Below, in pieces: positions 39,531 through 55,271 of a stretch of DNA of 64,000 nt. Source of the DNA: an uncultured Hyphomicrobiales bacterium (GTDB lineage: Bacteria > Pseudomonadota > Alphaproteobacteria > Rhizobiales > Beijerinckiaceae); NCBI GenBank assembly GCA_903861645.1, contig CAIOVE010000065.1:138-64137 (forward strand), given 5' to 3'. The translations under genes were made by a program, and so were the position numbers. Position 1 is the stretch's first letter. Each line of letters opens with the position of its first letter. A model generated the notes under the pieces. It worked only from the letters and a program-made list of their open reading frames with translations, was not told where the DNA came from and did no database searches.

Positions 39531-39673
39531 GGCGACCTCTTCATCCAAAGACGGGCGACCCGCATAGCATGGCGCCGCGTCGCGCCGATACCGCGGCGGG
39601 CTGGAATCCCGCGCTCCGATCGGCGATGATGGGGAAAGCGAACGCACAAGATCGTGACTTCGGGGGAAACGCA

Positions 39674-40651
39674 ATGAAGATCAATCGCCGCCAGTTTCAT
39701 GGCGTGGCGGCCGGCGTCGGCGCGCTGGCGCTGACGGGCGGCGCGGCGCGCGCGCAAAACTGGCCGGACCGGCCGATCCACCTCGTCGTGACATTTCCGC
39801 CCGGCGGCACCAACGACATCATCGCGCGGTTGATGGGCGATGAACTGTCGCGCCGTTTCGGCCAGCCCTTCATCATCGACAACAAGTTCGGCGGCGGCGG
39901 CAACATCGGCGCGGAGGGCGTGGTGCGCGCCGCGCCCGATGGCTACACCTTGTTGCAGGCGACCGCCGCCAACGCCACCAACGCGGCGCTCTATCCCAAC
40001 CTGCCCTTCAACTTCCAGCGCGATCTCGCGCCCGTGGCGGGCATCTACGGCCTGCCGCTGGTGCTCGTGACGCGCCCCAATTTCGTGGCGCAAACCATTC
40101 CCGAGCTGATCGCCTACGCCAGGGCCAACCCCGACAAGATCAGCCACGGGTCGGGCGGCGTCGGCAGCATTTCCCACATCTGCGCGGAAATGTTCAAGGC
40201 GATGAGCGGCATCCGCATGGTGCACGTGCCCTATCGCGGCAGCACGATCGAACTTGGCGATCTCGTCGCGGGGCGCATCGAAATGGCCTTCGACCCCCTG
40301 CCGAGTTCGCTCGACTATATTCGCGACGGTCGCCTGAAGGCGCTGGCGGTGACAACCCTCGCCCGGTCGGAAACCCTGCCGGATGTTCCCACGGTGGCGA
40401 GTTTCCTGCCGGGCTACGAGGCCAATGTATGGGTGGGCCTTTGCGCGCCCCGCGCCTTGCCGGCCGACCTCATCCAGCGGCTCAACACGGAAATCAACGC
40501 GGTGCTCGCCGATGCGGCGTTTCGCAAGCGGATGCTTGACCTCGGCGCCTCGCCGCTGCCATTGACCCCGGCCGCCTTCGGCAAGCTGATCGCCGACGAT
40601 ACGGAAAAATGGACGAAGGTCATCAACGCCGCCGGCATCAAGGCGGAATAG
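39674..40651 (+). CDS. Bug/TctC-family solute-binding protein
   Basis: Tat-like RRQF signal, [29 protein letters not shown]. Confidence 0.92.
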
Positions 40652-40660
40652 CGCGGGCGA

Positions 40661-41659
40661 ATGGAGGGAAACGTGAGGTTTGCGATCGTCGCCGCGCTCG
40701 GGCTGAGCCTTTGGGGACCATGCGCCGGGGCCGCCGACAGGATTGTCGTCGGCACCGTGCCCAACATTGGCGATGGTCCGCTCATTTGCGCCATGGAGCG
40801 TGGCTATTTTCGCGCCGACGGCATCGAGATCGATCTGACGCCCTTTCGCACGGCGTCGGAGATGACGCCGATGATCGCCCGCGGCGACATCGCCCTCATG
40901 GGCGGTGGCGTCAGCGTGTCCTATTTCAACGGCGTCTCGCGCGGTCTGCCCCTGCGCTACTTCGTCAACCGCGCGAAGGCGCCCGTCTGGCATGGCCTGA
41001 TCACGCGCGCCGGTCTCGCCGACAAGGTGAAGACGGCGCGCGATCTCAAGGGTCTGAGCATCGCCACGACGGCGGCGGGCGGTCTGTCGGAATATGAACT
41101 TGGCAAGACGCTGGAATCCGTCGGCCTGTCGCTCGACGACGTGGAGACCAAGCATCTCGGCATGCCGGAATCGGTGATCGCCGTCGACAACGGCGCCGTC
41201 GACGCGGCCGTTTTCGTGCCGCCCTTCGACACGGCGGCGATCAAGGGCGGCGGGCGCCATTTGCTCTATGTCGACGAGGCGGTGAAGCCGCGCATGGAGG
41301 TCAGCGGCCTCATGTACAACACCGACTGGGCCGCGAAAAACGCCGGCCTGCTCGACCGCTTCACAAGGGCCTACATTCGTGGCGCGCGCTGTTATCTCGA
41401 AGCCGCGCGCAACGGCGCCAACCGCGACGAGGTCGTCGATTATTTCGTCAAATATTCCCCGGTGAAGGACCGCGCGATCTTCGCGTCCATGCGCTGGTCG
41501 GAAATCGATCCGGATGGGCGCGTCGCCGTGGATTCGCTTCTCGACCAGCAGGATTTTTACAAGCGCCGGGGTTACCTCGGCGCGTCCTCGCCCATCGACG
41601 CGCTCGTCGACACGAATGTCGTCGAGCGCGCGCTCGCGCGTCTCGCGAGTGGCAAATAG
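40661..41659 (+). CDS. NitT/TauT/SsuA-type ABC solute-binding protein
   Basis: Signal peptide, GYFRADGIEI, DLKGLSI, GAVDAA, FTRAYIRG. Confidence 0.85.
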   Translation: MEGNVRFAIVAALGLSLWGPCAGAADRIVVGTVPNIGDGPLICAMERGYFRADGIEIDLTPFRTASEMTPMIARGDIALMGGGVSVSYFNGVSRGLPLRYFVNRAKAPVWHGLITRAGLADKVKTARDLKGLSIATTAAGGLSEYELGKTLESVGLSLDDVETKHLGMPESVIAVDNGAVDAAVFVPPFDTAAIKGGGRHLLYVDEAVKPRMEVSGLMYNTDWAAKNAGLLDRFTRAYIRGARCYLEAARNGANRDEVVDYFVKYSPVKDRAIFASMRWSEIDPDGRVAVDSLLDQQDFYKRRGYLGASSPIDALVDTNVVERALARLASGK

Positions 41660-41690: not shown

Positions 41691-43382
41691 TCAATGCTGG
41701 TCGAACACCGTCTGATAGGCGGCGACCGCCGCCTTGATCGCATCGAGCTCCGCCGAGGTCGGCCGGTCGGGATCGCGCGCCGCCGGCAGGCTGCCGAACT
41801 TCAGCAGACACGCCATGAGCAGGAAGCGCGCCTTGGTCGCGGTGAGATCGGTCGCCGCGATCTGGAACTCGTGCGGATCGGCGAAACCCTCGGTCGCGTT
41901 GCGCCCCACCTTGGCGACGGGAATGCCGCTGAAGCAGGCTTTGAGCAACAGTTTGTGGCGAGCCGTCGATGGCGTCGAGCCATAGGGCACGAGGCCCTCG
42001 TTGACGAACCCTGTCAACATGCCGAGCTTCAGCTTGTGCTCGATCGACGCGATGAGATCGTGCTCGAGCGCGGGATCGTCGCCGAATTCCAGCGTCGAAT
42101 AACTGCCATCCTTGACGATGGAAACGAAGGGAATGGCGCCCGGCAGCAACTTGCCGGCGGCGTCCTTCACCGTCACCGGCACATGCTCGATGCCGTTCGC
42201 GCCTTGCTTGACCGCCTTGACCACCGAGGGAAGCTGAGTAATGCGCACGTCCGACTTATACGTGTGCTTGAAGACCGGCAGATAGGTCAGCGCCAGCCGT
42301 CCGGTGTGGCTGACGTTGCCGATGATGCCGCCATGGCCGCCGGTGGCGCGGTAGCCGCCGGGTCGCGCGTCGACCTTGGCGACCTCGCGCGACGCGAATA
42401 TCTGCTGTTCCTGAATGACCACGACGCCGCATTTGTCGCGACCCTGTTCGTCGGCCCAGATGCGGGAATCTATATAGGCCGCGCTGTCGACGATGTTCTT
42501 GGGGCCGTCGTTGCTGATCTGGCCCTGCGGACGCTGCGCCGCGTTGCCGCAGATCGGCCGTGTCGTGTCGATGAGCAGGTTGAACCAGTAGGCGGTTTCC
42601 TCGACCTGCGGACTGCCCTGCGTCCAGATGACGCCGTCGTAATCGCCGCTCGTCGTCAGCGCCTGCATGTCGTTGGTGACCTTGGCGAGCATGGGCCGCG
42701 GCGGCGCGTTCGCCATGTGATAGGGCTTGTAGCCGAAGTAATTGTGGCCGCGCAGTTCGGGCGGAATGTCGCCCTCGCCCTTGTCCTTGCGCAGCCTGGC
42801 GGGCAGGCCCTTGGTGAAGCCGCCGGGAGGCGCGCCGCGATAAAAGTCCACGTCGGCGATGGCGGAAATCTGGTTGGCGACGCCCTCGACGCCGATGGCG
42901 AAACGATCGATTTCCTCGAAGCTGCGCGAGCCGTCGGGAAAGAATCCCTGCCGCGCCTTGGCGCTGCCGGGAGCCGCGCATTCTTCTTCCCATGGCGCGC
43001 CGTCCGCCTGCATGGCCATGTAGGGCAGGGGATAGAGCCCGTCCTCTGGACGCAACTCGATTTCGTAAACGGGCTTGTCCGCCTCGCTCGTCTTCTCCTT
43101 CTTGAAGACGCCGTCGGGGCCGATGTAGCCATCCGGCGGGCCATAGAGTTCGGCGGCGTCCGACTCAAGCGGATGCGCGGAGAATTGCTCGACATAGACC
43201 TTCGCCGGCGCGGCGAGCCGCTGCAGGCGCAGCGCGTCATAGGCCATCGGCGATCCGTCGGGATTAAGCCGGGGCGGCAGGCCATGTTTCGCGCGCGCCT
43301 TGTTGGAGGTCACCAGCGGCGGCGTGTTCTGGATCGTCGCGGTCGGACCAGCGAGATGGGCGATCCGTGTTTTCCTTGCCAT
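41691..43382 (-). CDS. Divergent asparaginase/glutaminase-fold amidohydrolase
   Basis: PTATIQ, TQGSPQVEETAYWF, AAQRP...NDGPKNI, SREVAK align to type I/II asparaginase motifs. Confidence 0.75.
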   Translation of the reverse strand: MARKTRIAHLAGPTATIQNTPPLVTSNKARAKHGLPPRLNPDGSPMAYDALRLQRLAAPAKVYVEQFSAHPLESDAAELYGPPDGYIGPDGVFKKEKTSEADKPVYEIELRPEDGLYPLPYMAMQADGAPWEEECAAPGSAKARQGFFPDGSRSFEEIDRFAIGVEGVANQISAIADVDFYRGAPPGGFTKGLPARLRKDKGEGDIPPELRGHNYFGYKPYHMANAPPRPMLAKVTNDMQALTTSGDYDGVIWTQGSPQVEETAYWFNLLIDTTRPICGNAAQRPQGQISNDGPKNIVDSAAYIDSRIWADEQGRDKCGVVVIQEQQIFASREVAKVDARPGGYRATGGHGGIIGNVSHTGRLALTYLPVFKHTYKSDVRITQLPSVVKAVKQGANGIEHVPVTVKDAAGKLLPGAIPFVSIVKDGSYSTLEFGDDPALEHDLIASIEHKLKLGMLTGFVNEGLVPYGSTPSTARHKLLLKACFSGIPVAKVGRNATEGFADPHEFQIAATDLTATKARFLLMACLLKFGSLPAARDPDRPTSAELDAIKAAVAAYQTVFDQH

Positions 43383-43416
43383 GTCTTGCAACTCCGTTTT
43401 GACGTGATCCGGTATG

Positions 43417-44376
43417 TCAGGCGGCGGTCGCCCGCGTGGGATGAACCATGGACTTTTCGATCATCGCATGCACGCCCTTCGAACCATTGACGGTTTGCGT
43501 GACGCGCAGATCGGCGGCGAGGCTGCACAGCATGTAGGCGTCCTCCGGCGAGAGATTGGCCTTCTCGCCCAGCAAGGCGATCATGTCGCGCAGGGCCGCG
43601 ACCGCGCACTGATCGAGATCGGGGTCCATGCCCATGGTGATGTAATGCGTCGGCGTCTCCGCGCGCGGATACGTGAAGTTCAGATCGTCGCGCACGACGA
43701 AGGTGAATTTGCCGCGCAGCGCCGTCTCGATGGCGGTGCCGTCGACCTCGCCGTCGCCCTGACAGCCATGCCCGTCGCCGCAGGAGAACAGCGCGCCCTC
43801 GACGAAAACGGGCAGATACAGCGTCGCGCCGGCCATCAACTCCTTGTTGTCGAGGTTGCCGCCATGGGCGCGCGGAATGATCGAGGTGATCTTGCCCCAG
43901 CCTTTCGGTGGCGCGACGCCCATGACGCCGAAGAAGGGTTTCAACGGCAATTCGAGACCCCAGGGCATCACGCCGACCATGCGCTTCTCGTCGAGCGGAA
44001 TGACGGTCGCGCGCGGTTCATCGACCGCGTGGGGCAGCGTGCCGCCAAGCGGGCGAATGGAGTTCACGCCCCAGTCCTGAAGCAACGACACCTCGTCGAT
44101 GCGAACCTCCAGCACCATGCCGGGTTTCGCGCCCGCGATATGCACGGGGCCGGTGAGAATATGCGGGCCTGGACCTTGCTGCGCGTGTTTGTGAATGAGC
44201 GTGAGCGCCTCGGGAATGTGAAACTTGTCCGCCGGCGGCAGAAAGGCTGGATTGCCCGACATGGTGTCAATGGTGACGCTGTCGCCACTTTGAACATGCA
44301 GCACCGGCTTGGCGACGGGATCAAAAAATCCCCACTGGCAGGTCGCCGGACCCGCGCTCACCTCGTAATGCGCCAT
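43417..44376 (-). CDS. Acetamidase/formamidase family protein
   Basis: HILTGPV, PFFGVMG, HGGNLDN, GDGHGCQGDGEV; RBS AGGAGG. Confidence 0.92.
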   Translation of the reverse strand: MAHYEVSAGPATCQWGFFDPVAKPVLHVQSGDSVTIDTMSGNPAFLPPADKFHIPEALTLIHKHAQQGPGPHILTGPVHIAGAKPGMVLEVRIDEVSLLQDWGVNSIRPLGGTLPHAVDEPRATVIPLDEKRMVGVMPWGLELPLKPFFGVMGVAPPKGWGKITSIIPRAHGGNLDNKELMAGATLYLPVFVEGALFSCGDGHGCQGDGEVDGTAIETALRGKFTFVVRDDLNFTYPRAETPTHYITMGMDPDLDQCAVAALRDMIALLGEKANLSPEDAYMLCSLAADLRVTQTVNGSKGVHAMIEKSMVHPTRATAA

Positions 44377-44453
44377 GCCATTCCTCCTGAACGCGAACCC
44401 ATGGAACGTCGGATTTTTTGACGCGCGCGTCGCGACATCGCGCGTCGTCCATC

Positions 44454-44469
44454 TGGCGCCAGCCTTGCA
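44454..44469 (+). promoter_or_regulatory. sigma54 promoter candidate for the ABC transporter operon
   Basis: TGGCGCC-AGCC-TTGCA, exact GG-N10-GC. Confidence 0.65.
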
Positions 44470-44481
44470 ATAACTTTGCCA
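44466..44481 (-). promoter_or_regulatory. sigma54 promoter candidate for the amidase/asparaginase-like arm
   Basis: Minus strand TGGCAAA-GTTA-TTGCA, exact GG-N10-GC. Confidence 0.6.
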
Positions 44482-44534
44482 TAGCTGTTCCCGCGTGGCC
44501 ATCGCATCAGGCGATCGCGCGCATGGAGGATGCC

Positions 44535-46124
44535 ATGCTTCGACTTCCCGCATTCAGATCATTTCGTCTCGCGCTCGCCGCGCTGACGGTCGCGTCGGCG
44601 CCGCTGGCGGCGCGCGCCGAAACAACCCTTCGCGTCGCGATGACCGCCGCGGACATTCCCGACTGGCGCGGTCAGCCCGATCAGGGATTCGAGGGCAACC
44701 GCTTTGTTGGCTTCACGCTCTATGATTCCCTCATCCTCTGGGATCTGTCGAGCAGCGACAAGGAAGTCGGCCTCAAGCCGGGGCTGGCGACGAAGTGGGC
44801 CATCGACCCCAACGACAACAAGCGCTGGATTTTCGATCTGCGCGAAGGCGTGAAATTCCACGACGGATGCGACTGGAACGCCGACAACGCCGTGTGGAAT
44901 TTCGAGCGACTTATCTCCGATAAAAATCCGGCCTTCACGCCATATAACTTCGGACGCGCGCGGTCTCGGACAAATAACATCGATCACATGGAGAAAATAA
45001 GCGACTACCAGATCGCCTTCCACACCAAGGTTCCGGAGTCACTGTTCTTTTTCAACATGCCATATCTGTTCATGCTGTCGAAATGCGCCGTCGAGAAGGC
45101 CGGCAACAATCTCGACGAGTTCGCCAAGCATCCCGCCGGCTCGGGCCCCTACAAATTCGCCAGCGTCGTGCCGCACGAACGGCTCGAATTGGTGAAAAAC
45201 ACCGATTACTGGGACAAGGATCGCGTCCCCAAGCATGATCGCCTTGTCCTGTTGCCAATGCCCGAGGCGACCACGCGCGTCGCGGCGCTGCTTTCCGGGC
45301 AGGTTGACTTCGTCGAGGCGCCGCCGCCCGACGCGGTGCCCGCGCTCAAGGCCGCCAATATGCGGATCGTGACCAATTCCTATCCGCATATATGGCCCTA
45401 TCTTCTGAATGTCGCGCGTGGCCCCTTCAAGGACGTGAAGGTGCGGCAGGCGGCGAACTGGGCGATGAACCGGCCGGAAATGGTCGACTTGCTCTCCGGC
45501 CTCGCGGCGCCGAGCGGTGGCGTCTTCGTCACGCAGCAGAAATATTATGGCCACCCGATGGAGTACGGCTACGACCCGAAGAAGGCGACCGCCCTGCTGA
45601 AGGAAGCCGGCTGCTATCCGTGTGAAATCAACATCGGCATTTCCACTTCCGGCTCCGGCCAGATGCAGCCGCTGCCGATGAACGAACTCGTCAAGGAGCA
45701 ACTGGAAGCGGTCGGCTTCAAGGTGAAGTTTGATACGCTGGACTGGAATTCGCTGCTCGATGTTTTCTTCAAGGGACAGGAAAAGTTCCCCTATGACGGC
45801 ATCAATTTCAGCAGCGGCGCCTCCGATGCGCTCAACTTCGTCAAGAGCCAGATGAGCAAATACAACGCGCCGCTGGGCGGCAACTGGGGTTGGTATTTCA
45901 ATCCCGAGGTCGATGCGCTCGGCGAGAAGGTGCTGGCGAGCTTCGATCCGGCCGAATGGGAGCCGATGGTCGTCAAGATGCACGAGATCATCGTTCGCGA
46001 TGCCCGCAATCTGTTCATCGTGACCGATCTGAACCCACGCGCCCTGTCGCCGCGCGTCAAGGGCTTCGTGCAGGCGCAGAGCTGGATTCAGGACATGACC
46101 CCGATTTCCATCGATCCGAAATAG
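44535..46124 (+). CDS. ABC transporter solute-binding protein, peptide/nickel family 5
   Basis: Signal peptide, LREGVKFHDG, GSGPYK, VRQAANWA; RBS GGAGG. Confidence 0.93.
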   Translation: MLRLPAFRSFRLALAALTVASAPLAARAETTLRVAMTAADIPDWRGQPDQGFEGNRFVGFTLYDSLILWDLSSSDKEVGLKPGLATKWAIDPNDNKRWIFDLREGVKFHDGCDWNADNAVWNFERLISDKNPAFTPYNFGRARSRTNNIDHMEKISDYQIAFHTKVPESLFFFNMPYLFMLSKCAVEKAGNNLDEFAKHPAGSGPYKFASVVPHERLELVKNTDYWDKDRVPKHDRLVLLPMPEATTRVAALLSGQVDFVEAPPPDAVPALKAANMRIVTNSYPHIWPYLLNVARGPFKDVKVRQAANWAMNRPEMVDLLSGLAAPSGGVFVTQQKYYGHPMEYGYDPKKATALLKEAGCYPCEINIGISTSGSGQMQPLPMNELVKEQLEAVGFKVKFDTLDWNSLLDVFFKGQEKFPYDGINFSSGASDALNFVKSQMSKYNAPLGGNWGWYFNPEVDALGEKVLASFDPAEWEPMVVKMHEIIVRDARNLFIVTDLNPRALSPRVKGFVQAQSWIQDMTPISIDPK

Positions 46125-46229
46125 GCTTGCCTTTCCGGGGCGCGATATATCGCGCTCCGGCCTTCCTTGGCGCCGGTATTGCATTTTCGTTTCGGCGGGC
46201 TCGTTTCGCGCCCGCGCATGGAGAGGCCC

Positions 46230-47186
46230 ATGTGGCGATACGCCGCGCGACGCATTCTCATGACGATCCCCATCGCGCTCGGGGTCAGCGCGATCTGCTA
46301 CGCGCTCATCCTGCTCGCGCCCGGCGACCCCATCCAGTCGATGCTGCCGCCCGACGCGACACCAGAGGAAGTCGCCTATCTCAAGAAGGCCTATGGCTTC
46401 GACAAGCCCGTGCCGGTGCAATATTTCCTTTGGCTGATGCGCGCGCTGTCGGGCGATCTCGGCGCCTCGATCCAGACCCATCGTCCCGTCGCGCTCGAGG
46501 TGATGACGGCGTTGTCGAACACCTTTATCATCGCGGTCGGCGCGGTGCTGCTCGCGTTCACCCTTGCTTTCGTCATGGGCACCATCGCCGCCTATCACGT
46601 GGGCAAGCCGACGGATCGCGCGCTGACGGGCGTCGCGGTCATGGGCGTCAGCATTCCGAACTATTGGCTGGGCATTGTCTTCATCATCATCTTCGCGGTG
46701 AAGCTCGGCGTGCTGCCCGCCACGGGCATGGGCTCGCAAGGTTCGGCGAACTTCAACATCTTCGACTGGGCGCAATTGAAATACGCGGTCCTGCCGATCC
46801 TCACCATGGCGATGACGCCGCTCGGCATCATCATGCGCAGCACGCGCGCGGCTGTCGCCGACGTGCTCAACCAGGATTTCATCCAGATGCTGCGCGCCAA
46901 GGGGTTGCGACCCTTCGCCGTGTTGCGGCACGCGGTGCGCAACGCCCTGCCGCAGGTGTTGACGGTCATGGGCCTGCAACTTGGCTATCTCGTGGGCGGA
47001 TCGATCCTCATCGAAACCATCTTCGCCTGGCCGGGCACCGGCTTTCTGATGAGCAAGGCCATCCTCACGCGCGACGTGCCGCTGCTGCAAGGGGCTATCC
47101 TCGTGCTCGCCATGGCCTTCGTCACCATCAATCTGGCCGTAGATCTTTTGCAGGCGGCGATCGACCCGCGCATCAAGCGCGCCTAG
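46230..47186 (+). CDS. ABC permease, DppB-like
   Basis: APGDP, YGFDKP, FIQMLRAKGL...HAVRNAL, ETIFAWPG. Confidence 0.93.
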   Translation: MWRYAARRILMTIPIALGVSAICYALILLAPGDPIQSMLPPDATPEEVAYLKKAYGFDKPVPVQYFLWLMRALSGDLGASIQTHRPVALEVMTALSNTFIIAVGAVLLAFTLAFVMGTIAAYHVGKPTDRALTGVAVMGVSIPNYWLGIVFIIIFAVKLGVLPATGMGSQGSANFNIFDWAQLKYAVLPILTMAMTPLGIIMRSTRAAVADVLNQDFIQMLRAKGLRPFAVLRHAVRNALPQVLTVMGLQLGYLVGGSILIETIFAWPGTGFLMSKAILTRDVPLLQGAILVLAMAFVTINLAVDLLQAAIDPRIKRA

Positions 47187-47199
47187 GCGGAACGACAAC

Positions 47200-48099
47200 A
47201 TGAGCGACGTGAATGCCGCCACGCTAGCCGATTTCGCCGCGAGCGAGGCGTCGCCGCCGGTGCGCGGCTACTGGGCAAGCGTCGGGCATCGGCTGCGATA
47301 TGATTACGCGACGCTGTTCTTTCTCTCGGTGATCATCGTCGTGGCCCTTCTGGCCATCTGCGCGCCATGGCTCGCGCCTTTCGATCCCACCAAGACGGCG
47401 ATGGCCTATCGGCTGAAACCCGTCGGCTTCAAGAACTTCATGCTTGGCACGGACGATCTTGGTCGCGACATGCTGTCCCGTCTTTTGTGGGGCGGGCGCA
47501 CCTCCCTGATCATGGGCATGGTTCCCGTGGGCGTCGCCACGGTGATCGGCGGCTTTCTGGGGGTTCTCGCCGGATTCGTCGGCGGCAGGGTCAACACGCT
47601 GATCATGCGCGCGATGGACATATTCTACGCGTTTCCCTCCGTGCTGCTGGCGGTCGCGATTTCCGGCACGCTTGGCGGCGGCATCAAGAACGGCATGCTC
47701 GCGCTGACGATCGTGTTCATTCCGCCGCTCTGCCGCGTCGCTGAATCCGCCACCACGCTCGTGCGCGGACTGGACTTCGTCGAGGCGGCGCGCGCCAGCG
47801 GCGCGACGACCCTGTCGATCATCTTGCACCACGTCCTCGGCAACGTGCTCAGCCCCATCCTCATCTTCGCGTCGAGCCTGATCTCGGTGTCGATTTTGCT
47901 CGGTTCCGGTCTGTCCTTCCTCGGCCTTGGCGTCGAGCCGCCGACGCCCGACTGGGGCCTGATGCTGTCGGCCCTGCGATCGGGAATTTATATTCAGCCA
48001 CTCGTCTGCGCCCTGCCGGGCGTCGCGATTTTCATCACATCGCTTTCGTTCAATCTCGTCAGCGACGGGTTGCGACAGGCGATGGATGTCAAGGCCTAG
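47200..48099 (+). CDS. ABC permease, DppC-like
   Basis: LGTDDLGRD, FVEAARASGA, LSFLGLG...PDWG. Confidence 0.93.
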   Translation: MSDVNAATLADFAASEASPPVRGYWASVGHRLRYDYATLFFLSVIIVVALLAICAPWLAPFDPTKTAMAYRLKPVGFKNFMLGTDDLGRDMLSRLLWGGRTSLIMGMVPVGVATVIGGFLGVLAGFVGGRVNTLIMRAMDIFYAFPSVLLAVAISGTLGGGIKNGMLALTIVFIPPLCRVAESATTLVRGLDFVEAARASGATTLSIILHHVLGNVLSPILIFASSLISVSILLGSGLSFLGLGVEPPTPDWGLMLSALRSGIYIQPLVCALPGVAIFITSLSFNLVSDGLRQAMDVKA

Positions 48100-48108
48100 G
48101 GAGCGCGC

Positions 48109-49191
48109 ATGCGCCTGATCACCGAACGACCGGATACCAGACCGACGCCCGCGGCGAGCCGCGACCGCGGCGGGCCGCAGCAACCTATCCTGATCGTCAA
48201 TGGCCTGCGCAAGTATTTCCCGATCAAGGGCGGCCTGCTGCAACGCAAGGTCGCCGAGGTGAAGGCGGTCGACGGCGTCGACTTTTCGGTGATGAAGGGG
48301 GAGACGCTCGGCATTGTCGGCGAATCCGGTTGCGGCAAGTCCACCCTCGCCCGCCTGTTGATGCATCTGATCCCGAAGGACGAGGGCGAGTTGATCTTCG
48401 ACGGCGATCCCGTCGACGACATCCGCGGCCTGTCGCTACGCGACCTTCGGCGCGATCTGCAAATGGTCTTTCAGGACAGTTATTCGTCGCTCAATCCACG
48501 GTTGCCGATTCAGGACTCCATCGCCTATGGCCCGCGCGTGCATGGCGTCGGCAAGGCCGAGGCGGCCGCGCTCGCCGCCGACCTGCTCAACAAGGTGGGG
48601 TTGCGGCCCTCCATGTTCGGTGCGCGCTATCCGCATGAACTGTCGGGCGGCCAGCGCCAGCGCGTCAACATCGCGCGCGCGCTGGCGCTCGATCCGCGCA
48701 TGCTGATCCTCGACGAGGCCGTGTCGGCGCTGGACAAGTCCGTCGAGGCGCAGGTGCTCAATCTGCTGTCGCGGCTCAAGCGCGAACTCAATCTGACGTA
48801 TCTGTTCATTTCGCACGATCTCAGCGTGGTTCAGTACGTGTCGGATCGCGTGCTGGTGATGTATCTCGGTCAGGTCGTTGAAATCGGTCCCGTCGACGCG
48901 ATCTATGCCGCGCCGCGGCATCCCTACACCCGCGCCCTGCTGGATTCCCGCCTTTCGATGAATCCGCTGGAGCGCATGAGTGAGCCGCCGCTGTCGGGCG
49001 ATCCGCCCAATCCAGTCAATCCGCCGAGCGGTTGTCGCTTCCGCACGCGCTGCGCCTTCGCGGAATCCGTGTGCGCCGAGCGGCAGCCCCGTCTCGCCGC
49101 CGCCGATGGCGGCGCGCATCTGGTCGCCTGCCACATGGCCGACGCCGAATCCGGCCATGGCCGCGCGGGCCTTTCCGCGCCGCTGCATTGA
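48109..49191 (+). CDS. ABC ATP-binding protein, DppF-like
   Basis: GESGCGKST, ELSGGQRQR, LDEAVSALD, C-terminal CRFRTRC. Confidence 0.93.
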   Translation: MRLITERPDTRPTPAASRDRGGPQQPILIVNGLRKYFPIKGGLLQRKVAEVKAVDGVDFSVMKGETLGIVGESGCGKSTLARLLMHLIPKDEGELIFDGDPVDDIRGLSLRDLRRDLQMVFQDSYSSLNPRLPIQDSIAYGPRVHGVGKAEAAALAADLLNKVGLRPSMFGARYPHELSGGQRQRVNIARALALDPRMLILDEAVSALDKSVEAQVLNLLSRLKRELNLTYLFISHDLSVVQYVSDRVLVMYLGQVVEIGPVDAIYAAPRHPYTRALLDSRLSMNPLERMSEPPLSGDPPNPVNPPSGCRFRTRCAFAESVCAERQPRLAAADGGAHLVACHMADAESGHGRAGLSAPLH

Positions 49192-50237
49192 TGGAGACGG
49201 ACATGCCGCTCGACGCGCTCGCCGACGCCACGCCCGCGGGCGTACAGATCGCAAGGCCTCTCGTCGAGGTGCGCGACCTCAACGTGCGCTTTGTCAGTCG
49301 CGACTCCCGCACCAACGCGGTCAATGGCGTTTCCTTCAGCCTGCAAGCGGGCGAGGTCCTCTGCATCATCGGCGAGTCAGGCTCGGGCAAGTCCGTGACC
49401 ATGCGCGCGCTGATGAAAATGCTGCCAGAAGGCAAGACCCGTATCGAGGGTTATCTGCGCGTCGGCGAACATCTCATCGCCGACATGACGGACCGGCAGA
49501 TGCGCGCCATTCGCGGCGCCGAGGTGTCGATGATCTTTCAGGAGCCGATGACGGCGCTCGACCCGGTCTGCACCATCGGCCAGCAGATCGCCGAAACCAT
49601 CATGCGGCACGAGGGCTGTTCGCGAAAGGTCGCCGACGCGCGCGCGCTCGAATTGTTGCAAGTGGTGCGCATTCCCTCGCCCGAGCGACGGCTGAAGGCC
49701 TATCCGCATGAATTGTCGGGCGGCCTGCGCCAACGCTCCATGATCGCCATCGCGCTGTCGTGCCGGCCGCGCCTGCTGTTGGCGGACGAGCCCACCACCG
49801 CGCTCGACGCCACCGTGCAGGCGCAGGTGCTGGTTCTCATGCGCAAGCTGCAACGGGAACTGGGCATGGCGATGATTTTCGTCACCCATGACCTCGGCGT
49901 CGCCGCGCAGATCGCCGACAAGGTGGCGGTCATGTACGCTGGTCGCATGGTTGAATACGGCCCCGTCGCCGAGGTGCTCAATTCGCCGCGTCATCCCTAC
50001 ACGCGCGCCATGCTCGCCTCCAACGTGCATGGCCACGCGCGTGGCGAGGATCTCGACACGATCCCCGGTTCGCCGCCGGACATGCGGCGGCCCATTCGCG
50101 GTTGCGCCTTCGCGCCGCGCTGCAAGGTCGCCCGGACATCTTGCGCGATCGAACCGCCGCCCGTCGTCCATCTCGGGCCCGACCGCTACTTCGCCTGCAT
50201 CGCCAACGACGCTTCCGCCGAAGCCGCAGCCACCTGA
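49191..50237 (+). CDS. ABC ATP-binding protein, DppD-like
   Basis: GESGSGKS, ELSGGLRQR, DEPTTALD; ATG overlaps the previous TGA. Confidence 0.93.
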   Translation: METDMPLDALADATPAGVQIARPLVEVRDLNVRFVSRDSRTNAVNGVSFSLQAGEVLCIIGESGSGKSVTMRALMKMLPEGKTRIEGYLRVGEHLIADMTDRQMRAIRGAEVSMIFQEPMTALDPVCTIGQQIAETIMRHEGCSRKVADARALELLQVVRIPSPERRLKAYPHELSGGLRQRSMIAIALSCRPRLLLADEPTTALDATVQAQVLVLMRKLQRELGMAMIFVTHDLGVAAQIADKVAVMYAGRMVEYGPVAEVLNSPRHPYTRAMLASNVHGHARGEDLDTIPGSPPDMRRPIRGCAFAPRCKVARTSCAIEPPPVVHLGPDRYFACIANDASAEAAAT

Positions 50238-50265
50238 GTTCAACCGCGCAGCAAGGGATATCGCC

Positions 50266-50976
50266 ATGCATGATTTCACAATGCCGCAATGGGCCATCGA
50301 TCGCGTTCTCGCCCGCCGTCCCCGTCGTTACGTCCACGACGACTTGGACCCGCGCAAGACCGCGCTCGTGGTGGTCGATCTGCAAAACGGGTTCATGGAC
50401 CCGGCCCACACGGCCTATCCGATCAAGACCGCCGTTGGCACCGTGCCGGCCGTCAATCGTCTCGCGGCCACCGTGCGCAAGACCGGCGGCAAGGTCGTCT
50501 GGATCAAGAACACGATCGACGAGAGCAATCTTGAAACCTGGTCGCACTGGTTCGCGATGGGCAAGCCCGAATTGAAGAACCAGCGCATCGAAGCCTTCCA
50601 GGATGGCGCGCCGGGCCACGCGATTTATCCAACCCTCGAGGTCAGGCCCGAGGACGACATCGTCAAGAAGTTCCGCTTCAGCGCCTTCCTGCCTGAATCA
50701 TCCAACCTCGCCGAAATGCTGCGCGCCGCCGGCATCGAAACCGTGCTGATCGTCGGCACCGTCACCAACGTGTGCTGCGAGTCCTCCGCCCGCGACGCGA
50801 TGATGATGAACTTCAAGACGATCATGGTCAGCGATGGCAATTCGGCGTCGAGCGATCACGAGCATACGGCGACGCTCGCGTCGTTTCAGGCGATATTCGG
50901 CGACGTCATGGATACCGACACGGTGTGCGGTTTCCTCGAGGCCAATTGCGCGACCACGGCGATGGCGGCGGAGTAG
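50266..50976 (+). CDS. Isochorismatase-family cysteine hydrolase
   Basis: VVDLQNGF, KFRFSAF, GTVTNVCCESSARDA (Asp-Lys-Cys triad). Confidence 0.92.
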   Translation: MHDFTMPQWAIDRVLARRPRRYVHDDLDPRKTALVVVDLQNGFMDPAHTAYPIKTAVGTVPAVNRLAATVRKTGGKVVWIKNTIDESNLETWSHWFAMGKPELKNQRIEAFQDGAPGHAIYPTLEVRPEDDIVKKFRFSAFLPESSNLAEMLRAAGIETVLIVGTVTNVCCESSARDAMMMNFKTIMVSDGNSASSDHEHTATLASFQAIFGDVMDTDTVCGFLEANCATTAMAAE

Positions 50977-51090
50977 CCGGACGTCGCCGCCCGCGGCGGC
51001 CGGGCGCATTGACTTGCATGGCCGCGCCCATCATTTTCCTCGCCAATTCGGGCGCGTCCACGGCGCGCCCGACGCGCCGCGGAGGAAACC

Positions 51091-51969
51091 ATGGGATTCG
51101 TCGTCAACAAGCTGTCGAACACGGTCGCGGAAGTCGTCGGCCTCGATGGTTCGAAGCCCATGGCGCCGGAGGATATCGCGCGGCTGAAGGCGACCTTCCT
51201 TTCGCATCCCATCATGTGCCTGCGCGACCAGAAGCTGACCCCCGCCCAACAAGGCGCCTTCGCGCGGCAATGGGGTCCGCTGGAGGGGCAGGATCGCAGC
51301 GCGTTCTGCCATCCCGAGGACAAGGACATTCTCATTCTGTCGAATGACAGGCGGCCCGATGGCTCGCAGGTCGGCATCGTCGACGCCGGCGATTTCTGGC
51401 ATTCGGATTCGTCGCATCTCGCCGAACCCTGCCGCATCACGACGCTGCACGCGGTCCGCAATCCCGCCAGGGGCGGCGACACGTATTTCCTCGACATGCG
51501 CGCGGTCTACGACGCCTTGCCCGAGCATCTGAAAAAACGCGTCGCCGGCCGCGACGCCATCCATCACGTCGCCAAGACGCTCAACCCGCGCGTCGCCGTC
51601 TCGACCGAGCGCGCCGGCGCGGTCGAATATTACAAGCAGCGCGAGAAGGAGACGAAGCCCGTCACGCAACCCATCGTGCGGACGCATCCGGAAACCGGCC
51701 GGCAGGCGCTCTATATCTCGCCGCGCTTCACCATCGCCATCGATGGCATGGACGACGCCGAGGCGCAGCCGCTGCTCGACGAACTCTTCCGCTTCATGTT
51801 CTCGAATCCGGCCTGGCAATACACCCACAAATGGCGCGACGGCGATCTCGTCATGTGGGACAACGCCTGCCTCAATCACATGGCGGGCGGCGGCTACGAA
51901 TATCCCGACGTGCGCTGGATGCATCGCGCGACGGTCGTCGGCGATCGGCCTTACTACAGAGCGGCGTAA
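51091..51969 (+). CDS. TauD/TfdA-family Fe(II)/2-oxoglutarate dioxygenase
   Basis: WHSD, GGDTYF, PIVRTHPETG, WDNACLNH, MHRATV. Confidence 0.92.
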   Translation: MGFVVNKLSNTVAEVVGLDGSKPMAPEDIARLKATFLSHPIMCLRDQKLTPAQQGAFARQWGPLEGQDRSAFCHPEDKDILILSNDRRPDGSQVGIVDAGDFWHSDSSHLAEPCRITTLHAVRNPARGGDTYFLDMRAVYDALPEHLKKRVAGRDAIHHVAKTLNPRVAVSTERAGAVEYYKQREKETKPVTQPIVRTHPETGRQALYISPRFTIAIDGMDDAEAQPLLDELFRFMFSNPAWQYTHKWRDGDLVMWDNACLNHMAGGGYEYPDVRWMHRATVVGDRPYYRAA

Positions 51970-51970
51970 A

Positions 51971-52717
51971 TCAGCCTTCGGACTGGCGCCCGTGCGGCGT
52001 CGGCGCGAGGGCGGGCGCGATCTGGATGCGCCCTCGCCGCTGCGCCTTGCGCGCGCCCACTAGCCGATAGACCTGCTTGGTCGCCTCGATGACATGCACG
52101 CCGCCGCCGGGAAGCGCGAAGCGACCGCCGAAACGCTCGAAGGCCCCCGCCGCCCCCAGAAACAATGGGCGCTCGAAGGGTGGCACGTAGAGCGCCTCCG
52201 TCTCGTGAGCCGGCGAAAAGAGCGCCTCGCGCAAAAGCTCGCGCAACTGGCCGCGCGAATAGGGCTGGCCCTGTCCGAAGGGCGTCGTCTCGCGGCGCGC
52301 CCACAGTCCCCGGCGATTGGGCGCCACCAGCATCATGCGGCCGCCCGGCGTCAGCACGCGCCAGACCTCGGCGAGCAATTCACGCGGCGCCTCGCAAACC
52401 TCCAGCGCGTGGATGACCAGCACGCGGTCCATGCAGCCATCGGGCAGGGGCAGCATGGTCACGTCGACCAGCGCCGAGGCGGACGATTGCTGGTCGGGCC
52501 AGTGCATGACGCCCTGTTCGGCGGGCATGAAGGCCAGCACGCGCACCGCCTCGTCGCGGAATTCGTCGAGATAGGGCGTGGCGTAGCCGAGGCCGAGGAT
52601 CGAAAACCCCGGACACGACGGCCATCGCTCGCGCACCAGCCGGCCTACGGCGCGGCGCGCGGCGCGCCCCAGAGGCGTGGCGTAGAAGGAGCGGAGATCG
52701 ACGACGTCGAGCGGCAT
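51971..52717 (-). CDS. Class I SAM-dependent methyltransferase (YafS-like)
   Basis: DVVDLRSFYATPLG, LGLGYATPYL, HALEV, PFGQGQPYS. Confidence 0.85.
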   Translation of the reverse strand: MPLDVVDLRSFYATPLGRAARRAVGRLVRERWPSCPGFSILGLGYATPYLDEFRDEAVRVLAFMPAEQGVMHWPDQQSSASALVDVTMLPLPDGCMDRVLVIHALEVCEAPRELLAEVWRVLTPGGRMMLVAPNRRGLWARRETTPFGQGQPYSRGQLRELLREALFSPAHETEALYVPPFERPLFLGAAGAFERFGGRFALPGGGVHVIEATKQVYRLVGARKAQRRGRIQIAPALAPTPHGRQSEG

Positions 52718-52796
52718 GTGCCGAGTGTCGCACGAAGCGCCCGCGCGGGGAATGCGCGCCATTGCCTCCCGCCGCGGCTCCCGCCATATGCGGGGC

Positions 52797-55271
52797 ATGA
52801 AGTTCACGCCACCCCTGCCCATCGACGAGGTTCTGGGCGACCTGACCGCGATGCTCGCCACGGGCAATGCCGCGGTGCTCGTCGCGCCGCCGGGCGCCGG
52901 CAAGACGACGCGCGTCCCGCTGGCGCTGCTCGACGCGCCCTGGGCGGCGGGCAAGAAGCTGATCTTGCTGGAGCCGCGCCGGCTCGCCGCGCGGGCCGCC
53001 GCCGCGCGCATGGCCGACACGCTCGGCGAGGCGGTCGGCGAAACCATTGGTCTGCGTGTGCGCATGGAATCGCGCGTCTCCGCGCGCACCCGCGTCGAGG
53101 TCGTGACCGAGGGCGTCTTCGCCCGCATGATCCTTGACGATCCCGAATTGTCGGGCGTCGCGGGCGTGTTGTTCGACGAGTTTCACGAACGCTCGCTCGA
53201 CGCCGACCTTGGCCTCGCGCTGGCGCTCGACGCGCAGGGCGCGCTGCGCGAGGATTTGCGCTTGCTGGTCATGTCCGCGACGCTCGACGGCGCGCGCGTA
53301 GCCCGGCTCGTGCACGGCGCGCCGGTCATTGAATCCAGTGGTCGCGCCTATCCCGTGGAGACCCGCCACGTCCCCCGCGATCCCCGCGCGCGGATCGAGG
53401 ACGAGGTGGTCCGCGTGGTCACGGCCGCGCTGCGGGCCGAGCCGGGGTCGCTGCTGGTTTTCCTGCCGGGGCAGGGTGAAATCCTGCGCGTGGCCGAACG
53501 GCTGCGCGAGAACATCCGCGACGACGCCATCGACATCGCGCCGCTGTTCGGCGCGATGGATCGCCGCGCCCAGGATCTCGCGGTGTCGCCCGCCGCGCCG
53601 GGGCGGCGAAAAATCGTGCTCGCGACCTCCATCGCCGAGACCTCGCTTACCATCGAGGGCGTCCGGGTCGTGATCGACAGCGGGCTCGTCCGCGCGCCGC
53701 GCTACGAGCCCGACATCGGCCTGACGCGGCTGGAGACTATTCGTGTGTCGCGCGCGGCGGCCGACCAGCGTCGTGGCCGCGCGGGGCGCACCGAGCCCGG
53801 CGTCTGCTATCGCCTGTGGGAGGAAGCCGCGACCGGCGCGCTCGACGCCTTCTCCACGCCGGAAATCCTCGCGGCGGACCTGTCCGGCCTCATTCTCGAC
53901 CTCGCCGCCTGGGGCGCGCGCGATCCCGCCTCGCTCGCCTGGCTGGACCCGCCGCCGGCGCCAGCGGTCAAGGAGGCCCGCGCGCTGCTGGAGGGCCTCG
54001 GCGCGCTCGATCGCGATGGGGGCATCACGGACGAAGGCCGCGCCATCCGCGCGCTGCCCTTGCCGCCGCGCCTCGCCCGCATGGTCGTCGACGCCGCGCG
54101 CCAGGGGTGCGCGCCGCTGGCGGCCGAACTCGCGGTGGCGCTGGTCGAGCGGGGCCTTGGCGGCGACGCGGTCGACCTGACGGACCGGGTGGAGCGCCTG
54201 TCGCGCGACCGCTCGCGGCGCGCCGAGGACGCCCGGCGGCTGGCGCGCGGCTGGGCGCGGGTGGCGTCGGAGGGCGCGCGGGTCGCGCGCGAGGCTCCCG
54301 AAATGAGCGCCGGCGCGCTGATCGCGCTGGCCTATCCCGATCGCGTGGCGAAAGCGCGCGGCAAGCCCGGCGAATTTCTGATGGCGAACGGGCGCGCGGC
54401 CACGTTGGAGCCGCACGAGCGGCTGGCGCGCGAACCCTTTCTCGCCATCGCGGAGATCGCCGGCCGCGCTGCCGCCGCGCGGATTCTAGCCGCCGCGCCG
54501 CTGACGCTGGAGGAGATCGAGGCCGCCGCCGGCGACGCACTCCAGATCCGCGAGGAAATCACCTTCGACCGCGGCGCCGCGGCCCTGCGGACCCGTCGCG
54601 TCCGGCGTATCGGCGCGCTGACGCTCGCCGAGCAGGTTCGCCCGACCCCGCCCGGCGCGGCCTCGGCGATTCTGCTCGCCGAGGGCGTCGCCGCGCTTGG
54701 CCTGAACCGCCTGCCGTGGACGAAGGCGCTGACCCAGTGGCGGGACCGCGTCATGTTCCTGCGCCGGGCCGAGGGCGAGGAATGGCCGGACCTCTCCGAC
54801 GCGGCGCTGACGGCGACGATCGGCGACTGGCTGGCGCCCCATCTCGACGGCAAGACGGCGCTGACCGGCATCGGCGCGGACGATCTCTCGGAGGCGCTGC
54901 GCGCCCTGTTGCCCTGGGACATGGCCAGACGACTGGAGGCCGAGGCGCCGACCCATTTCGCCGCGCCCACGGGCAACGCCGTCGCGCTCGATTACGAGGC
55001 CGAGGGCGGCCCGGCGCTCGCCATCCGCGTGCAGGAACTGTTCGGCCTGTCGACCCACCCCGCCATCGCGGGCGGGCGCGTGCCGCTGACCCTGCACCTG
55101 CTGTCGCCAGCCCATCGGCCGATCCAGATCACCCGCGATCTCCCGGGCTTCTGGAAAGGTTCATGGAGCGCCGTCAAAACGGAAATGAAGGGCCGCTATC
55201 CCCGCCACGTCTGGCCCGACGACCCCGCCGCCGCCACGCCAACGGCGCGCGCCAAGCCGCGGGGAACCTGA
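52797..55271 (+). CDS. hrpB: ATP-dependent RNA helicase HrpB
   Basis: APPGAGKTT, EPRRLAA, DEFHERS, SAT, ATSIAETSLTI, QRRGRAGR, C-terminal LLSPAHRPIQITRDLPGFW. Confidence 0.95.
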   Translation: MKFTPPLPIDEVLGDLTAMLATGNAAVLVAPPGAGKTTRVPLALLDAPWAAGKKLILLEPRRLAARAAAARMADTLGEAVGETIGLRVRMESRVSARTRVEVVTEGVFARMILDDPELSGVAGVLFDEFHERSLDADLGLALALDAQGALREDLRLLVMSATLDGARVARLVHGAPVIESSGRAYPVETRHVPRDPRARIEDEVVRVVTAALRAEPGSLLVFLPGQGEILRVAERLRENIRDDAIDIAPLFGAMDRRAQDLAVSPAAPGRRKIVLATSIAETSLTIEGVRVVIDSGLVRAPRYEPDIGLTRLETIRVSRAAADQRRGRAGRTEPGVCYRLWEEAATGALDAFSTPEILAADLSGLILDLAAWGARDPASLAWLDPPPAPAVKEARALLEGLGALDRDGGITDEGRAIRALPLPPRLARMVVDAARQGCAPLAAELAVALVERGLGGDAVDLTDRVERLSRDRSRRAEDARRLARGWARVASEGARVAREAPEMSAGALIALAYPDRVAKARGKPGEFLMANGRAATLEPHERLAREPFLAIAEIAGRAAAARILAAAPLTLEEIEAAAGDALQIREEITFDRGAAALRTRRVRRIGALTLAEQVRPTPPGAASAILLAEGVAALGLNRLPWTKALTQWRDRVMFLRRAEGEEWPDLSDAALTATIGDWLAPHLDGKTALTGIGADDLSEALRALLPWDMARRLEAEAPTHFAAPTGNAVALDYEAEGGPALAIRVQELFGLSTHPAIAGGRVPLTLHLLSPAHRPIQITRDLPGFWKGSWSAVKTEMKGRYPRHVWPDDPAAATPTARAKPRGT

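Follow-up and report, generated by a model that had tools for sequence, protein, structure and literature searches.

A conserved ABC importer and amide-hydrolase module with sigma-54 promoter motifs includes a divergent asparaginase-fold protein family

Organic nitrogen compounds beyond amino acids and urea form a poorly charted area of bacterial nitrogen nutrition. Several described systems resemble, in part, a gene cluster within a 64,000-nucleotide stretch of contig CAIOVE010000065.1 from an uncultured Hyphomicrobiales bacterium (the whole stretch is called the window here), wherein genes for three hydrolases with amide-cleaving folds (AspL, Fmd, and Isoc) accompany those for an ATP-binding cassette (ABC) importer. 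In E. coli, the rut genes are under NtrC/sigma-54 control, and the Rut pathway (RutA through RutG) has in common with the cluster that mode of control, as predicted for the window, and an isochorismatase-like hydrolase with an Asp-Lys-Cys triad. However, the cluster encodes a five-gene ABC importer in place of RutG, and no RutA, RutC, RutD, RutE, RutF, or RutG was found among the neighbors scanned in the window region. The lower pathway for biuret, triuret, and cyanuric acid (BiuH, TrtA, AtzE, and AtzF) also combines an isochorismatase-family cysteine hydrolase with serial amidases, and the amidase signature (AS) amidases encoded in relatives of the cluster score best or near best against AtzE, at 266–322 bits versus a cut-off of 426–461. 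In contrast, the window carries no AS amidase, and AspL and Fmd are without counterparts in that pathway. The short-chain amide/urea system of Methylophilus (fmdA and fmdDEF) likewise scavenges nitrogen through an FmdA/AmdA-family amidase and an importer that depends on a binding protein, and in one subgroup of AspL relatives (locus L013 and the L029 group) the importer is of the same Peripla_BP_5/6 type, whereas the importer in the window is of the family-5 peptide/nickel type and is joined by two further hydrolases. Finally, the fructose-asparagine locus of Salmonella is a catabolic locus that includes FraE, an asparaginase-family enzyme for an N-substituted substrate. Although fraE is among the weak matches to AspL, FraE is of normal length, periplasmic, and ~32% identical to AspL over 28% of the AspL length, and the cluster in the window has no kinase or deglycase genes.

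The proteins of the window fall well short of the equivalog cut-offs for RutB (81.9 bits versus 377.95), BiuH (51.7 versus 370), the FmdA formamidase (NF045496, 62 versus 500), and TauD (NF007104, 174.6 versus 313), and the preliminary description of this DNA, which could match the combination to no described pathway, agrees with this outcome. Literature searches pairing asparaginase with acetamidase, formamidase, isochorismatase, urease, biuret, or triuret yielded no description of the cluster, and no paper linking AspL or Fmd to the biuret/triuret pathway was found. We regard the cluster as a real, undescribed variant of an ordinary nitrogen-scavenging operon, of which the AspL family is the most interesting part. 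By analogy, it would work like the known NtrC-driven scavenging operons (rut, urt/ure, and fmd). The reading that we favor, with moderate confidence, is that it constitutes a nitrogen-limitation module that imports a small amide or ureide and strips nitrogen from it with three hydrolases.

Reading frames were chosen by third-position GC content and were checked against Pfam and NCBIfam. On the minus strand, AspL (41691–43382, 563 amino acids, asparaginase fold, PF00710, E value 6e-12) and Fmd (43417–44376, 319 amino acids, FmdA/AmdA-family amidase, PF03069, E value 2e-28) form one operon with a 34-nucleotide gap between them. A 158-nucleotide spacer separates this pair from a divergent, plus-strand operon that encodes the substrate-binding protein SBP (44535–46124, 529 amino acids, SBP_bac_5, E value 1e-77), the DppB/NikB-type permease PermB (46218 or 46230 to 47186, BPD_transp_1 and BPD_transp_1_N), the DppC/NikC-type permease PermC (47200–48099, BPD_transp_1 and OppC_N), a first ATPase of the DppF/OppF type (48109–49191) and a second of the OppD type (49194–50237), both with ABC_tran and oligo_HPY domains, and the isochorismatase-like cysteine hydrolase Isoc (50266–50976, 236 amino acids, PF00857, E value 6e-37). 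Further downstream on the plus strand is a gene for TauD, a 2-oxoglutarate dioxygenase of the TauD/TfdA family (51091–51969, PF02668, E value 7e-60). The preliminary description had named three amide-hydrolase folds (asparaginase-like, acetamidase/formamidase, and cysteine hydrolase), a complete five-gene family-5 importer with the F-type ATPase before the D-type, and a TauD/TfdA dioxygenase, and each of these is confirmed by the domain matches, with this order of the two ATPase genes identical in all orthologous loci. It had also reported the lack of a local regulator, and Pfam and NCBIfam searches of the neighbors likewise found no regulator gene between 39.1 and 56.4 kb.

The region from 41691 to 50976 (9.3 kb) is a conserved module. 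The grouping of the cluster genes, which is repeated in dozens of genomes and in several layouts, is not due to chance, with the exception of TauD. The window proteins were mapped onto a comparison set comprising 80 loci around AspL relatives and 40 loci around SBP relatives. An orthologous importer with 55–83% identity is present in ~28 of the 80 AspL loci, in layouts that are either divergent, as in the window, or co-linear, and in 16 of the 80 the gene just upstream of AspL is an Fmd orthologue. Isoc directly follows the second ATPase gene in 15 of 19 orthologous importer loci, and the same 19 loci include AspL (12 loci), Fmd (8), an AS amidase (8), and a GntR/FCD regulator (5). These co-occurrence counts identify the importer and Isoc as the core of the module and AspL as its commonest partner, with the other amidases being interchangeable. 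AspL, Fmd, the ABC genes, and Isoc are linked in Hyphomicrobiales, Rhodobacterales, and Rhodospirillales-type genomes, where their layouts are rearranged. The earlier proposal of an amide-hydrolase and importer cluster holds across both the AspL-centered and the SBP-centered loci, and co-occurrence in other genomes, by which that proposal was to be judged, was found for AspL, Fmd, the ABC genes, and Isoc but not for TauD. Moreover, the Isoc–AspL pair also adjoins importers of the Liv and NitT types (L013, L024, and L025), and the recurrence of this pair beside other importers argues that the two enzymes act in one pathway.

The nearest relatives comprise Terripilifer, Methylocella, Rhizobiales 62-17, and two Beijerinckiaceae-type metagenome-assembled genomes. 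Their full form has AspL and Fmd on one strand and, on the other, the series SBP(-SBP)-AS amidase-(GntR)-PermB-PermC-ATPase-ATPase-Isoc. The window represents a compact form that lacks both the AS amidase and the GntR gene, and the importer operon of locus L101 is equally compact. Candidate cultured carriers of the module are Methylocella sp. CPCC 101449, Terripilifer ovatus, Kaistia soli DSM 19436, Jannaschia formosa, and Lichenifustis flavocetrariae.

Sequence motifs for the alternative sigma factor sigma-54 are concentrated within the module. The strict motif (TGGC-N7-TTGCA, where the −24/−12 consensus is TGGCAC-N5-TTGCA) occurs three times in the window versus 0.42 occurrences expected, and all three sites lie inside the module. 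Motif P1 (plus strand, 44454–44469, TGGCGC-N5-TTGCA) is located ~65 nucleotides upstream of the SBP start codon, motif P2 (plus strand, 46168–46183, TGGCGC-N5-TTGCA) lies in the ~100-nucleotide gap between SBP and PermB, and the sigma-54-like motif P3 (minus strand, 44466–44481, TGGCAA-N5-TTGCA) faces Fmd–AspL. Of 28 orthologous SBP genes, 19 have P1 upstream, compared with a background of 0.047 motifs per kb, and P1 is also present in 15 of 20 SBP-centered loci. From its place between SBP and PermB, P2 would give the membrane components a promoter separate from that of the binding protein, and seven loci (L100–L105 and L111) keep it ahead of PermB. Most of the P2-bearing loci hold an AS amidase gene and a GntR gene between P1 and P2. 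The −12 elements of P1 and P3 overlap in the palindrome TTGCAA, and polymerase could not occupy both promoters simultaneously.

The genome carries one rpoN gene and three true sigma-54 activators (enhancer-binding proteins). Two of these, NtrC and NtrX, exceed their equivalog cut-offs, and the third is an unassigned response regulator. NtrX is without the GAFTGA motif, and NtrC is the sole nitrogen-type activator identified in the genome. A tighter version of the motif has only 28 sites genome-wide, and these precede, among others, the urea transporter gene urtA, a xanthine permease gene, a NirA-family gene (all three over cut-off), a creatininase-like gene, and dctA. Sigma-54 control of the module, which the preliminary description had proposed, is well supported as a sequence-based prediction by the three strict motifs, by the retention of P1 and P2 in relatives, and by the presence of rpoN and NtrC. 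We further infer membership of the module in the nitrogen-limitation regulon of NtrC, because the motif is shared with nitrogen-uptake genes and because NtrC is the only nitrogen-type activator. A module that is conserved in many Alphaproteobacteria would thus have the same class of sigma-54 promoter as genes for urea, xanthine, and nitrite-reductase-family functions.

The importer has all the components of family 5 (TC 3.A.1.5), comprising an SBP_bac_5 protein, two BPD_transp_1 permeases (one with OppC_N), and two oligo_HPY ATPases. SBP is periplasmic, with a signal peptide that ends at ARA-ET and a mature protein of residues ~29–529, and it falls below every equivalog cut-off among GsiB, NikA, DppA, and OppA, scoring higher against GsiB than against NikA. 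Its nearest solved structures are YliB/GsiB and DppA, at 110–130 bits only. In NCBIfam, PermB comes closest to nickel, glutathione, and oligopeptide permeases, in each case short of the cut-off, and the top models for the two permeases are for nickel or nickel/cobalt (Opp2B, 274 bits; Opp1C, 253 bits; cut-off 350). The first ATPase scores 362 bits against NF008453 and 333 bits against OppF, and the second scores 340 bits against the OppD model NF007010. No component of the importer reaches a Dpp, Opp, Gsi, Nik, or Cnt equivalog.

Isoc is the last gene of the importer operon, with its start set from the start codon and a ribosome-binding site. The protein scores 127.7 bits against PF00857 (cut-off 27), and its putative catalytic triad of Asp38, Lys135, and Cys170 is invariant in 10 orthologues. 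Its nearest characterized relatives, all of them weak matches, are RutB, N-carbamoylsarcosine amidase, and BiuH, for which the solved structure 6xjm yields only 40 bits. The Fmd start at 44376 was chosen from the lengths of orthologues (317–324 amino acids) and a GGAGGA ribosome-binding site. Fmd scores 99.8 bits against the PF03069 superfamily (gathering threshold 27), and its nearest solved structures are the uncharacterized 'acetamidases' 3b9t and 2ii1. Sequence searches for solved structures close to Isoc, Fmd, and SBP returned only distant matches and no relative that would define a ligand.

AspL has more than 4000 homologues, the best 120 of which, as listed, are 74–87% identical to the window protein. 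When a library clustered at 50% identity was searched with AspL, ~20 full-length representatives and 197 matches at E < 1e-30 were recovered, and canonical asparaginases appeared only near E 1e-10. AspL scores 65.8 bits against TIGR00520 versus a cut-off of 314.3, and sequence alignment to the Erwinia and E. coli asparaginases covers residues 233–392 only. An AlphaFold model of AspL (pLDDT 78, pTM 0.77) was compared by Foldseek with the whole chains of ErA, HpA, and PGA and matched them at E 1e-17, with target-normalized TM scores of 0.74–0.81 and 17–21% identity. As modeled, AspL is a complete two-domain type II asparaginase fold. An insertion of ~210 amino acids (residues ~20–230), modeled with low confidence, follows the nucleophile strand at the site of the canonical mobile lid.

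Like the type II asparaginases AnsB, ErA, and Pseudomonas 7A PGA, AspL therefore has the two-domain fold in its predicted model, and it also has a nucleophile Thr, a second hydroxyl residue, and a Lys. The N-terminal nucleophile Thr lies in GPTAT16IQN, a divergent version of the TGGTIAG-like strand, and Thr16, Thr254, Ser257, Glu261, Lys336, and the C-terminal His563 are invariant in 38 homologues with 56–82% identity. Unlike those enzymes, AspL has 563 rather than ~330 amino acids, carries the insertion in place of the lid loop, and is cytoplasmic without a signal peptide, and its gene context is one of predicted amide/ureide uptake rather than Asn/Gln metabolism. In addition, the canonical HGTDT motif (Thr89-Asp90) reads QGS257P258Q, such that Thr is replaced by Ser and Asp by a nearly invariant Pro, whereas Lys162 of the same canonical triad is kept as Lys336. 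In E. coli asparaginase II, Asp90 also contacts the substrate α-amino group. Because this residue is replaced by Pro258, the substrate of AspL is probably neither free Asn nor free Gln.

AspL is also found outside the module described here. In the L029 group it accompanies Liv-type importers, Peripla_BP_5/6 proteins, and an AS amidase, and elsewhere it accompanies TctC binding proteins or importers of the NitT/NMT1 type (L024, L043, L050, and a plasmid of Agrobacterium vitis), some of which also have luciferase-like monooxygenases alongside. The A. vitis locus (L081, plasmid CP146243.1 of a grape-gall strain, 126.5–135.4 kb) presents a different, oxygenase-linked context, in which an AspL homologue (57% identity) is the last gene of an operon whose other products are a GntR regulator, an ABC importer of the NitT type, two luciferase-like monooxygenases of the NtaA/DmoA type, and two small proteins; a gene for a flavin reductase lies upstream. 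Two AspL paralogues, 60–68% and 69–80% identical to that of the window, are present in L005, L040, and L054 (the last being the same as G004:C16 and L140). They are in tandem in L005 and L054/L140, whereas the pair in L040 flanks the importer on opposite strands, which suggests duplication and divergence within the family.

In the mechanism that we propose, the region 41691–50976 would be expressed as two or three transcription units. Under nitrogen shortage, NtrC together with sigma-54 polymerase would fire P1 for SBP and P2 for PermB-PermC-ATPase-ATPase-Isoc, and P3 would probably fire Fmd–AspL. SBP and the ABC importer would take up a small organic nitrogen compound bearing carboxamide or carbamoyl/ureido groups. 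Isoc, whose gene is the most tightly linked to the importer, would make the first C–N cleavage in the cytoplasm, and Fmd and AspL would then hydrolyze the leftover amide bonds, as would the AS amidase of the relatives. The products would be ammonia and, in some lineages, urea destined for a co-transcribed urease. A complete same-strand urease operon follows AspL in five loci of different orders (L041, L051, L053, L056, and L067), from Lichenifustis, Kaistia, a Rhodobacteraceae genome, and two unclassified Proteobacteria. This operon (UreE-like, UreF, fused UreAB, UreC, and UreD) begins ~30 nucleotides after AspL and spans ~11.7–16.7 kb in L041, and the AS amidases of these urease-linked loci match AtzE best. 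The urease linkage, the relatives of Isoc that act on ureido or carbamoyl groups, and the AtzE-like AS amidases hint by analogy at a ureide-type substrate.

Several observations weigh against this proposal. P3 is specific to the window and is not kept in the nearest relatives, which instead have a spacer of 350–420 nucleotides with a GTATACAAT box and a GntR gene. Inspection by eye of the 158-nucleotide spacer for an NtrC-binding site revealed only GC-rich palindromes, including GACGCGCGCGTC at 44420–44431. AspL lacks the Asp of the Thr-Lys-Asp triad, and its activity is a prediction. Furthermore, it occurs with four classes of transporter, and no second amidase of the three families was recognized in the flanks of 40 of 76 AspL loci, and AspL may thus serve a more general step than the module suggests. 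The urease link is confined to 5 of the 80 loci. Lastly, both the substrate class and the order of steps are drawn by analogy, since all the similarities fall far below equivalog cut-offs.

A bolder extension, which we offer only tentatively and at low probability, would make AspL a new class of amidohydrolase with a Thr/Ser/Lys center without Asp and a lid of ~210 amino acids. It would process a common amide intermediate without a free α-amino group, perhaps an N-acylurea or a compound resembling allophanate, from which urea would be released, and together with the importer-linked cysteine hydrolase it would define an undescribed NtrC-controlled ureide/poly-amide pathway widespread in soil, freshwater, and marine Alphaproteobacteria. 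Identification of the substrate would annotate thousands of genes, given the size of the AspL family, and the compound could prove to be a nitrogen source not previously recognized for bacteria of soil and water.

The preliminary description had envisioned a fuller route, wherein TauD would oxidatively N-dealkylate the imported compound before sequential deamidation. TauD does lie on the same strand only 114 nucleotides downstream of Isoc, and oxygenases accompany AspL elsewhere, as luciferase-like monooxygenases in ~7 loci and on the A. vitis plasmid. However, the Isoc–TauD gap holds a GC-rich hairpin and a TTGACT (sigma-70-like) box that part the two genes, and synteny in relatives keeps TauD apart from the module, for which reason we conclude that TauD adjoins the module as a bystander and is not a member. 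Five genomes of the same genus encode orthologues of TauD with 66–80% identity, each beside an orthologue of the methyltransferase gene of the window. In four of these genomes the two genes are convergent and TauD diverges from a gene of TctC-like type, and neither importer genes nor Isoc, Fmd, or AspL were found near these same-genus orthologues. Genomes G006 and G017 have both AspL and TauD, but on separate contigs. Conversely, G004 and G016, also of the same genus, each encode an AspL orthologue with 80% identity and an adjoining Fmd, and a TauD orthologue is found nowhere in either genome; G016 has the whole module, whereas the G004 contig has the AspL–Fmd side only plus a weak AS-amidase match. 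None of the 19 orthologous importer loci includes a TauD orthologue. Unrelated TauD paralogues (28–30% identity) do occur near two loci, L059 and L101, but this is about the level expected by chance because the genome alone has 10 TauD paralogues, such that one or two chance neighbors are expected among ~1200 flanking open reading frames. No tauABC genes are present, and a sequence search for solved structures of TauD gave only distant matches. We hold the dealkylation route to be improbable. Gene neighborhood alone misled the first reading, since TauD is merely a neighbor; the importer and hydrolases, sigma-54 control, and the lack of a match to a known pathway stand, and the TauD step does not.

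That the module instead serves peptides is unlikely, although it deserves more weight than the TauD route. Imported di- or oligopeptides (Asn/Gln-rich, C-terminally amidated, or amidated muropeptides) would then be deamidated by the hydrolases, as might be expected from an importer of the peptide/opine/nickel (PepT) ABC family whose nearest solved binding proteins are GsiB/YliB and DppA, and from an asparaginase fold that classically acts on Asn/Gln side chains. Yet neither the module nor the modules of relatives include a peptidase, AspL lacks the Asp90 that is the canonical contact to a free α-amino group, and AspL also pairs with urea/amide-type Liv and NitT importers and TctC binding proteins, which are not peptide carriers. 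A peptide substrate also leaves the urease link unexplained. The five urease-linked operons and the nickel-type best matches of both permeases might rather point to uptake of nickel, free or as a chelate, to supply urease or some other enzyme, with the hydrolases as unrelated passengers, but the permease scores below cut-off, the better match of SBP to GsiB than to NikA, and the absence of a NikR gene make this very improbable. Most module loci have no urease nearby, the urease of the window genome is encoded on a different contig that has a sigma-54 urtA promoter of its own, and in many genomes the importer co-varies with three or four cytoplasmic amidases. Least credible of all is a chance juxtaposition without shared function. 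The genome has many paralogous binding proteins, and TauD and the TctC and NMT1 genes beside the module do look incidental, but AspL, Fmd, the ABC genes, and Isoc recur together at the identities given above, rearranged yet linked and with shared promoter motifs. Import and stepwise hydrolysis of a small amide or ureide under nitrogen limitation is hence the reading that we retain.

GC content is 65.2% for the genome and 63.7% for the module, which corresponds to the 10th percentile of 9.3-kb windows. The preliminary description had judged the ABC genes by eye to be less GC-rich than hrpB or podJ. This holds only in part, in that the SBP gene alone is low, at 59.6% (2.4th percentile), and the comparator hrpB is itself unusually high at 74%. 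A foreign origin or mobile element was considered and rejected, as the GC content of the module is only at the 10th percentile and neither flanking repeats nor mobility genes were detected. AspL is distributed patchily: 7 of 19 genomes of the same genus have it, whereas the 12 genomes examined from other genera of the order all lack it. Gain or loss of AspL clearly happens, with no mechanism visible.

Other neighbors of the module, between ~39 and 56 kb, are genes for a PTPS-like protein, a TctC-type binding protein (39569–40651), an NMT1-type binding protein (40661–41659), a methyltransferase, hrpB, and an alcohol dehydrogenase. The TctC and NMT1 genes were considered as members and rejected, since they are absent from the modules of the nearest relatives and since paralogues of such binding proteins are numerous in the genome (75 of the TctC family and 24 of the NMT1 family), which by comparison encodes only three family-5 ABC systems. 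Genes of these two types occur near AspL elsewhere in 10–13 of 76 loci and were treated as incidental. TauD and the convergent S-adenosylmethionine-dependent methyltransferase form a small genus-conserved unit (51091–53128 in the window; L095–L098), which in the relatives also has a divergent gene for a very diverged TctC-like binding protein. The longest frames for the methyltransferase (51971–53128, minus strand) and hrpB (52716–55271, plus strand) share ~400 nucleotides in a region of 72–76% GC, compared with the genome mean of 65%. Orthologues of the methyltransferase are only ~250 amino acids long, and the true starts of both genes are probably later.

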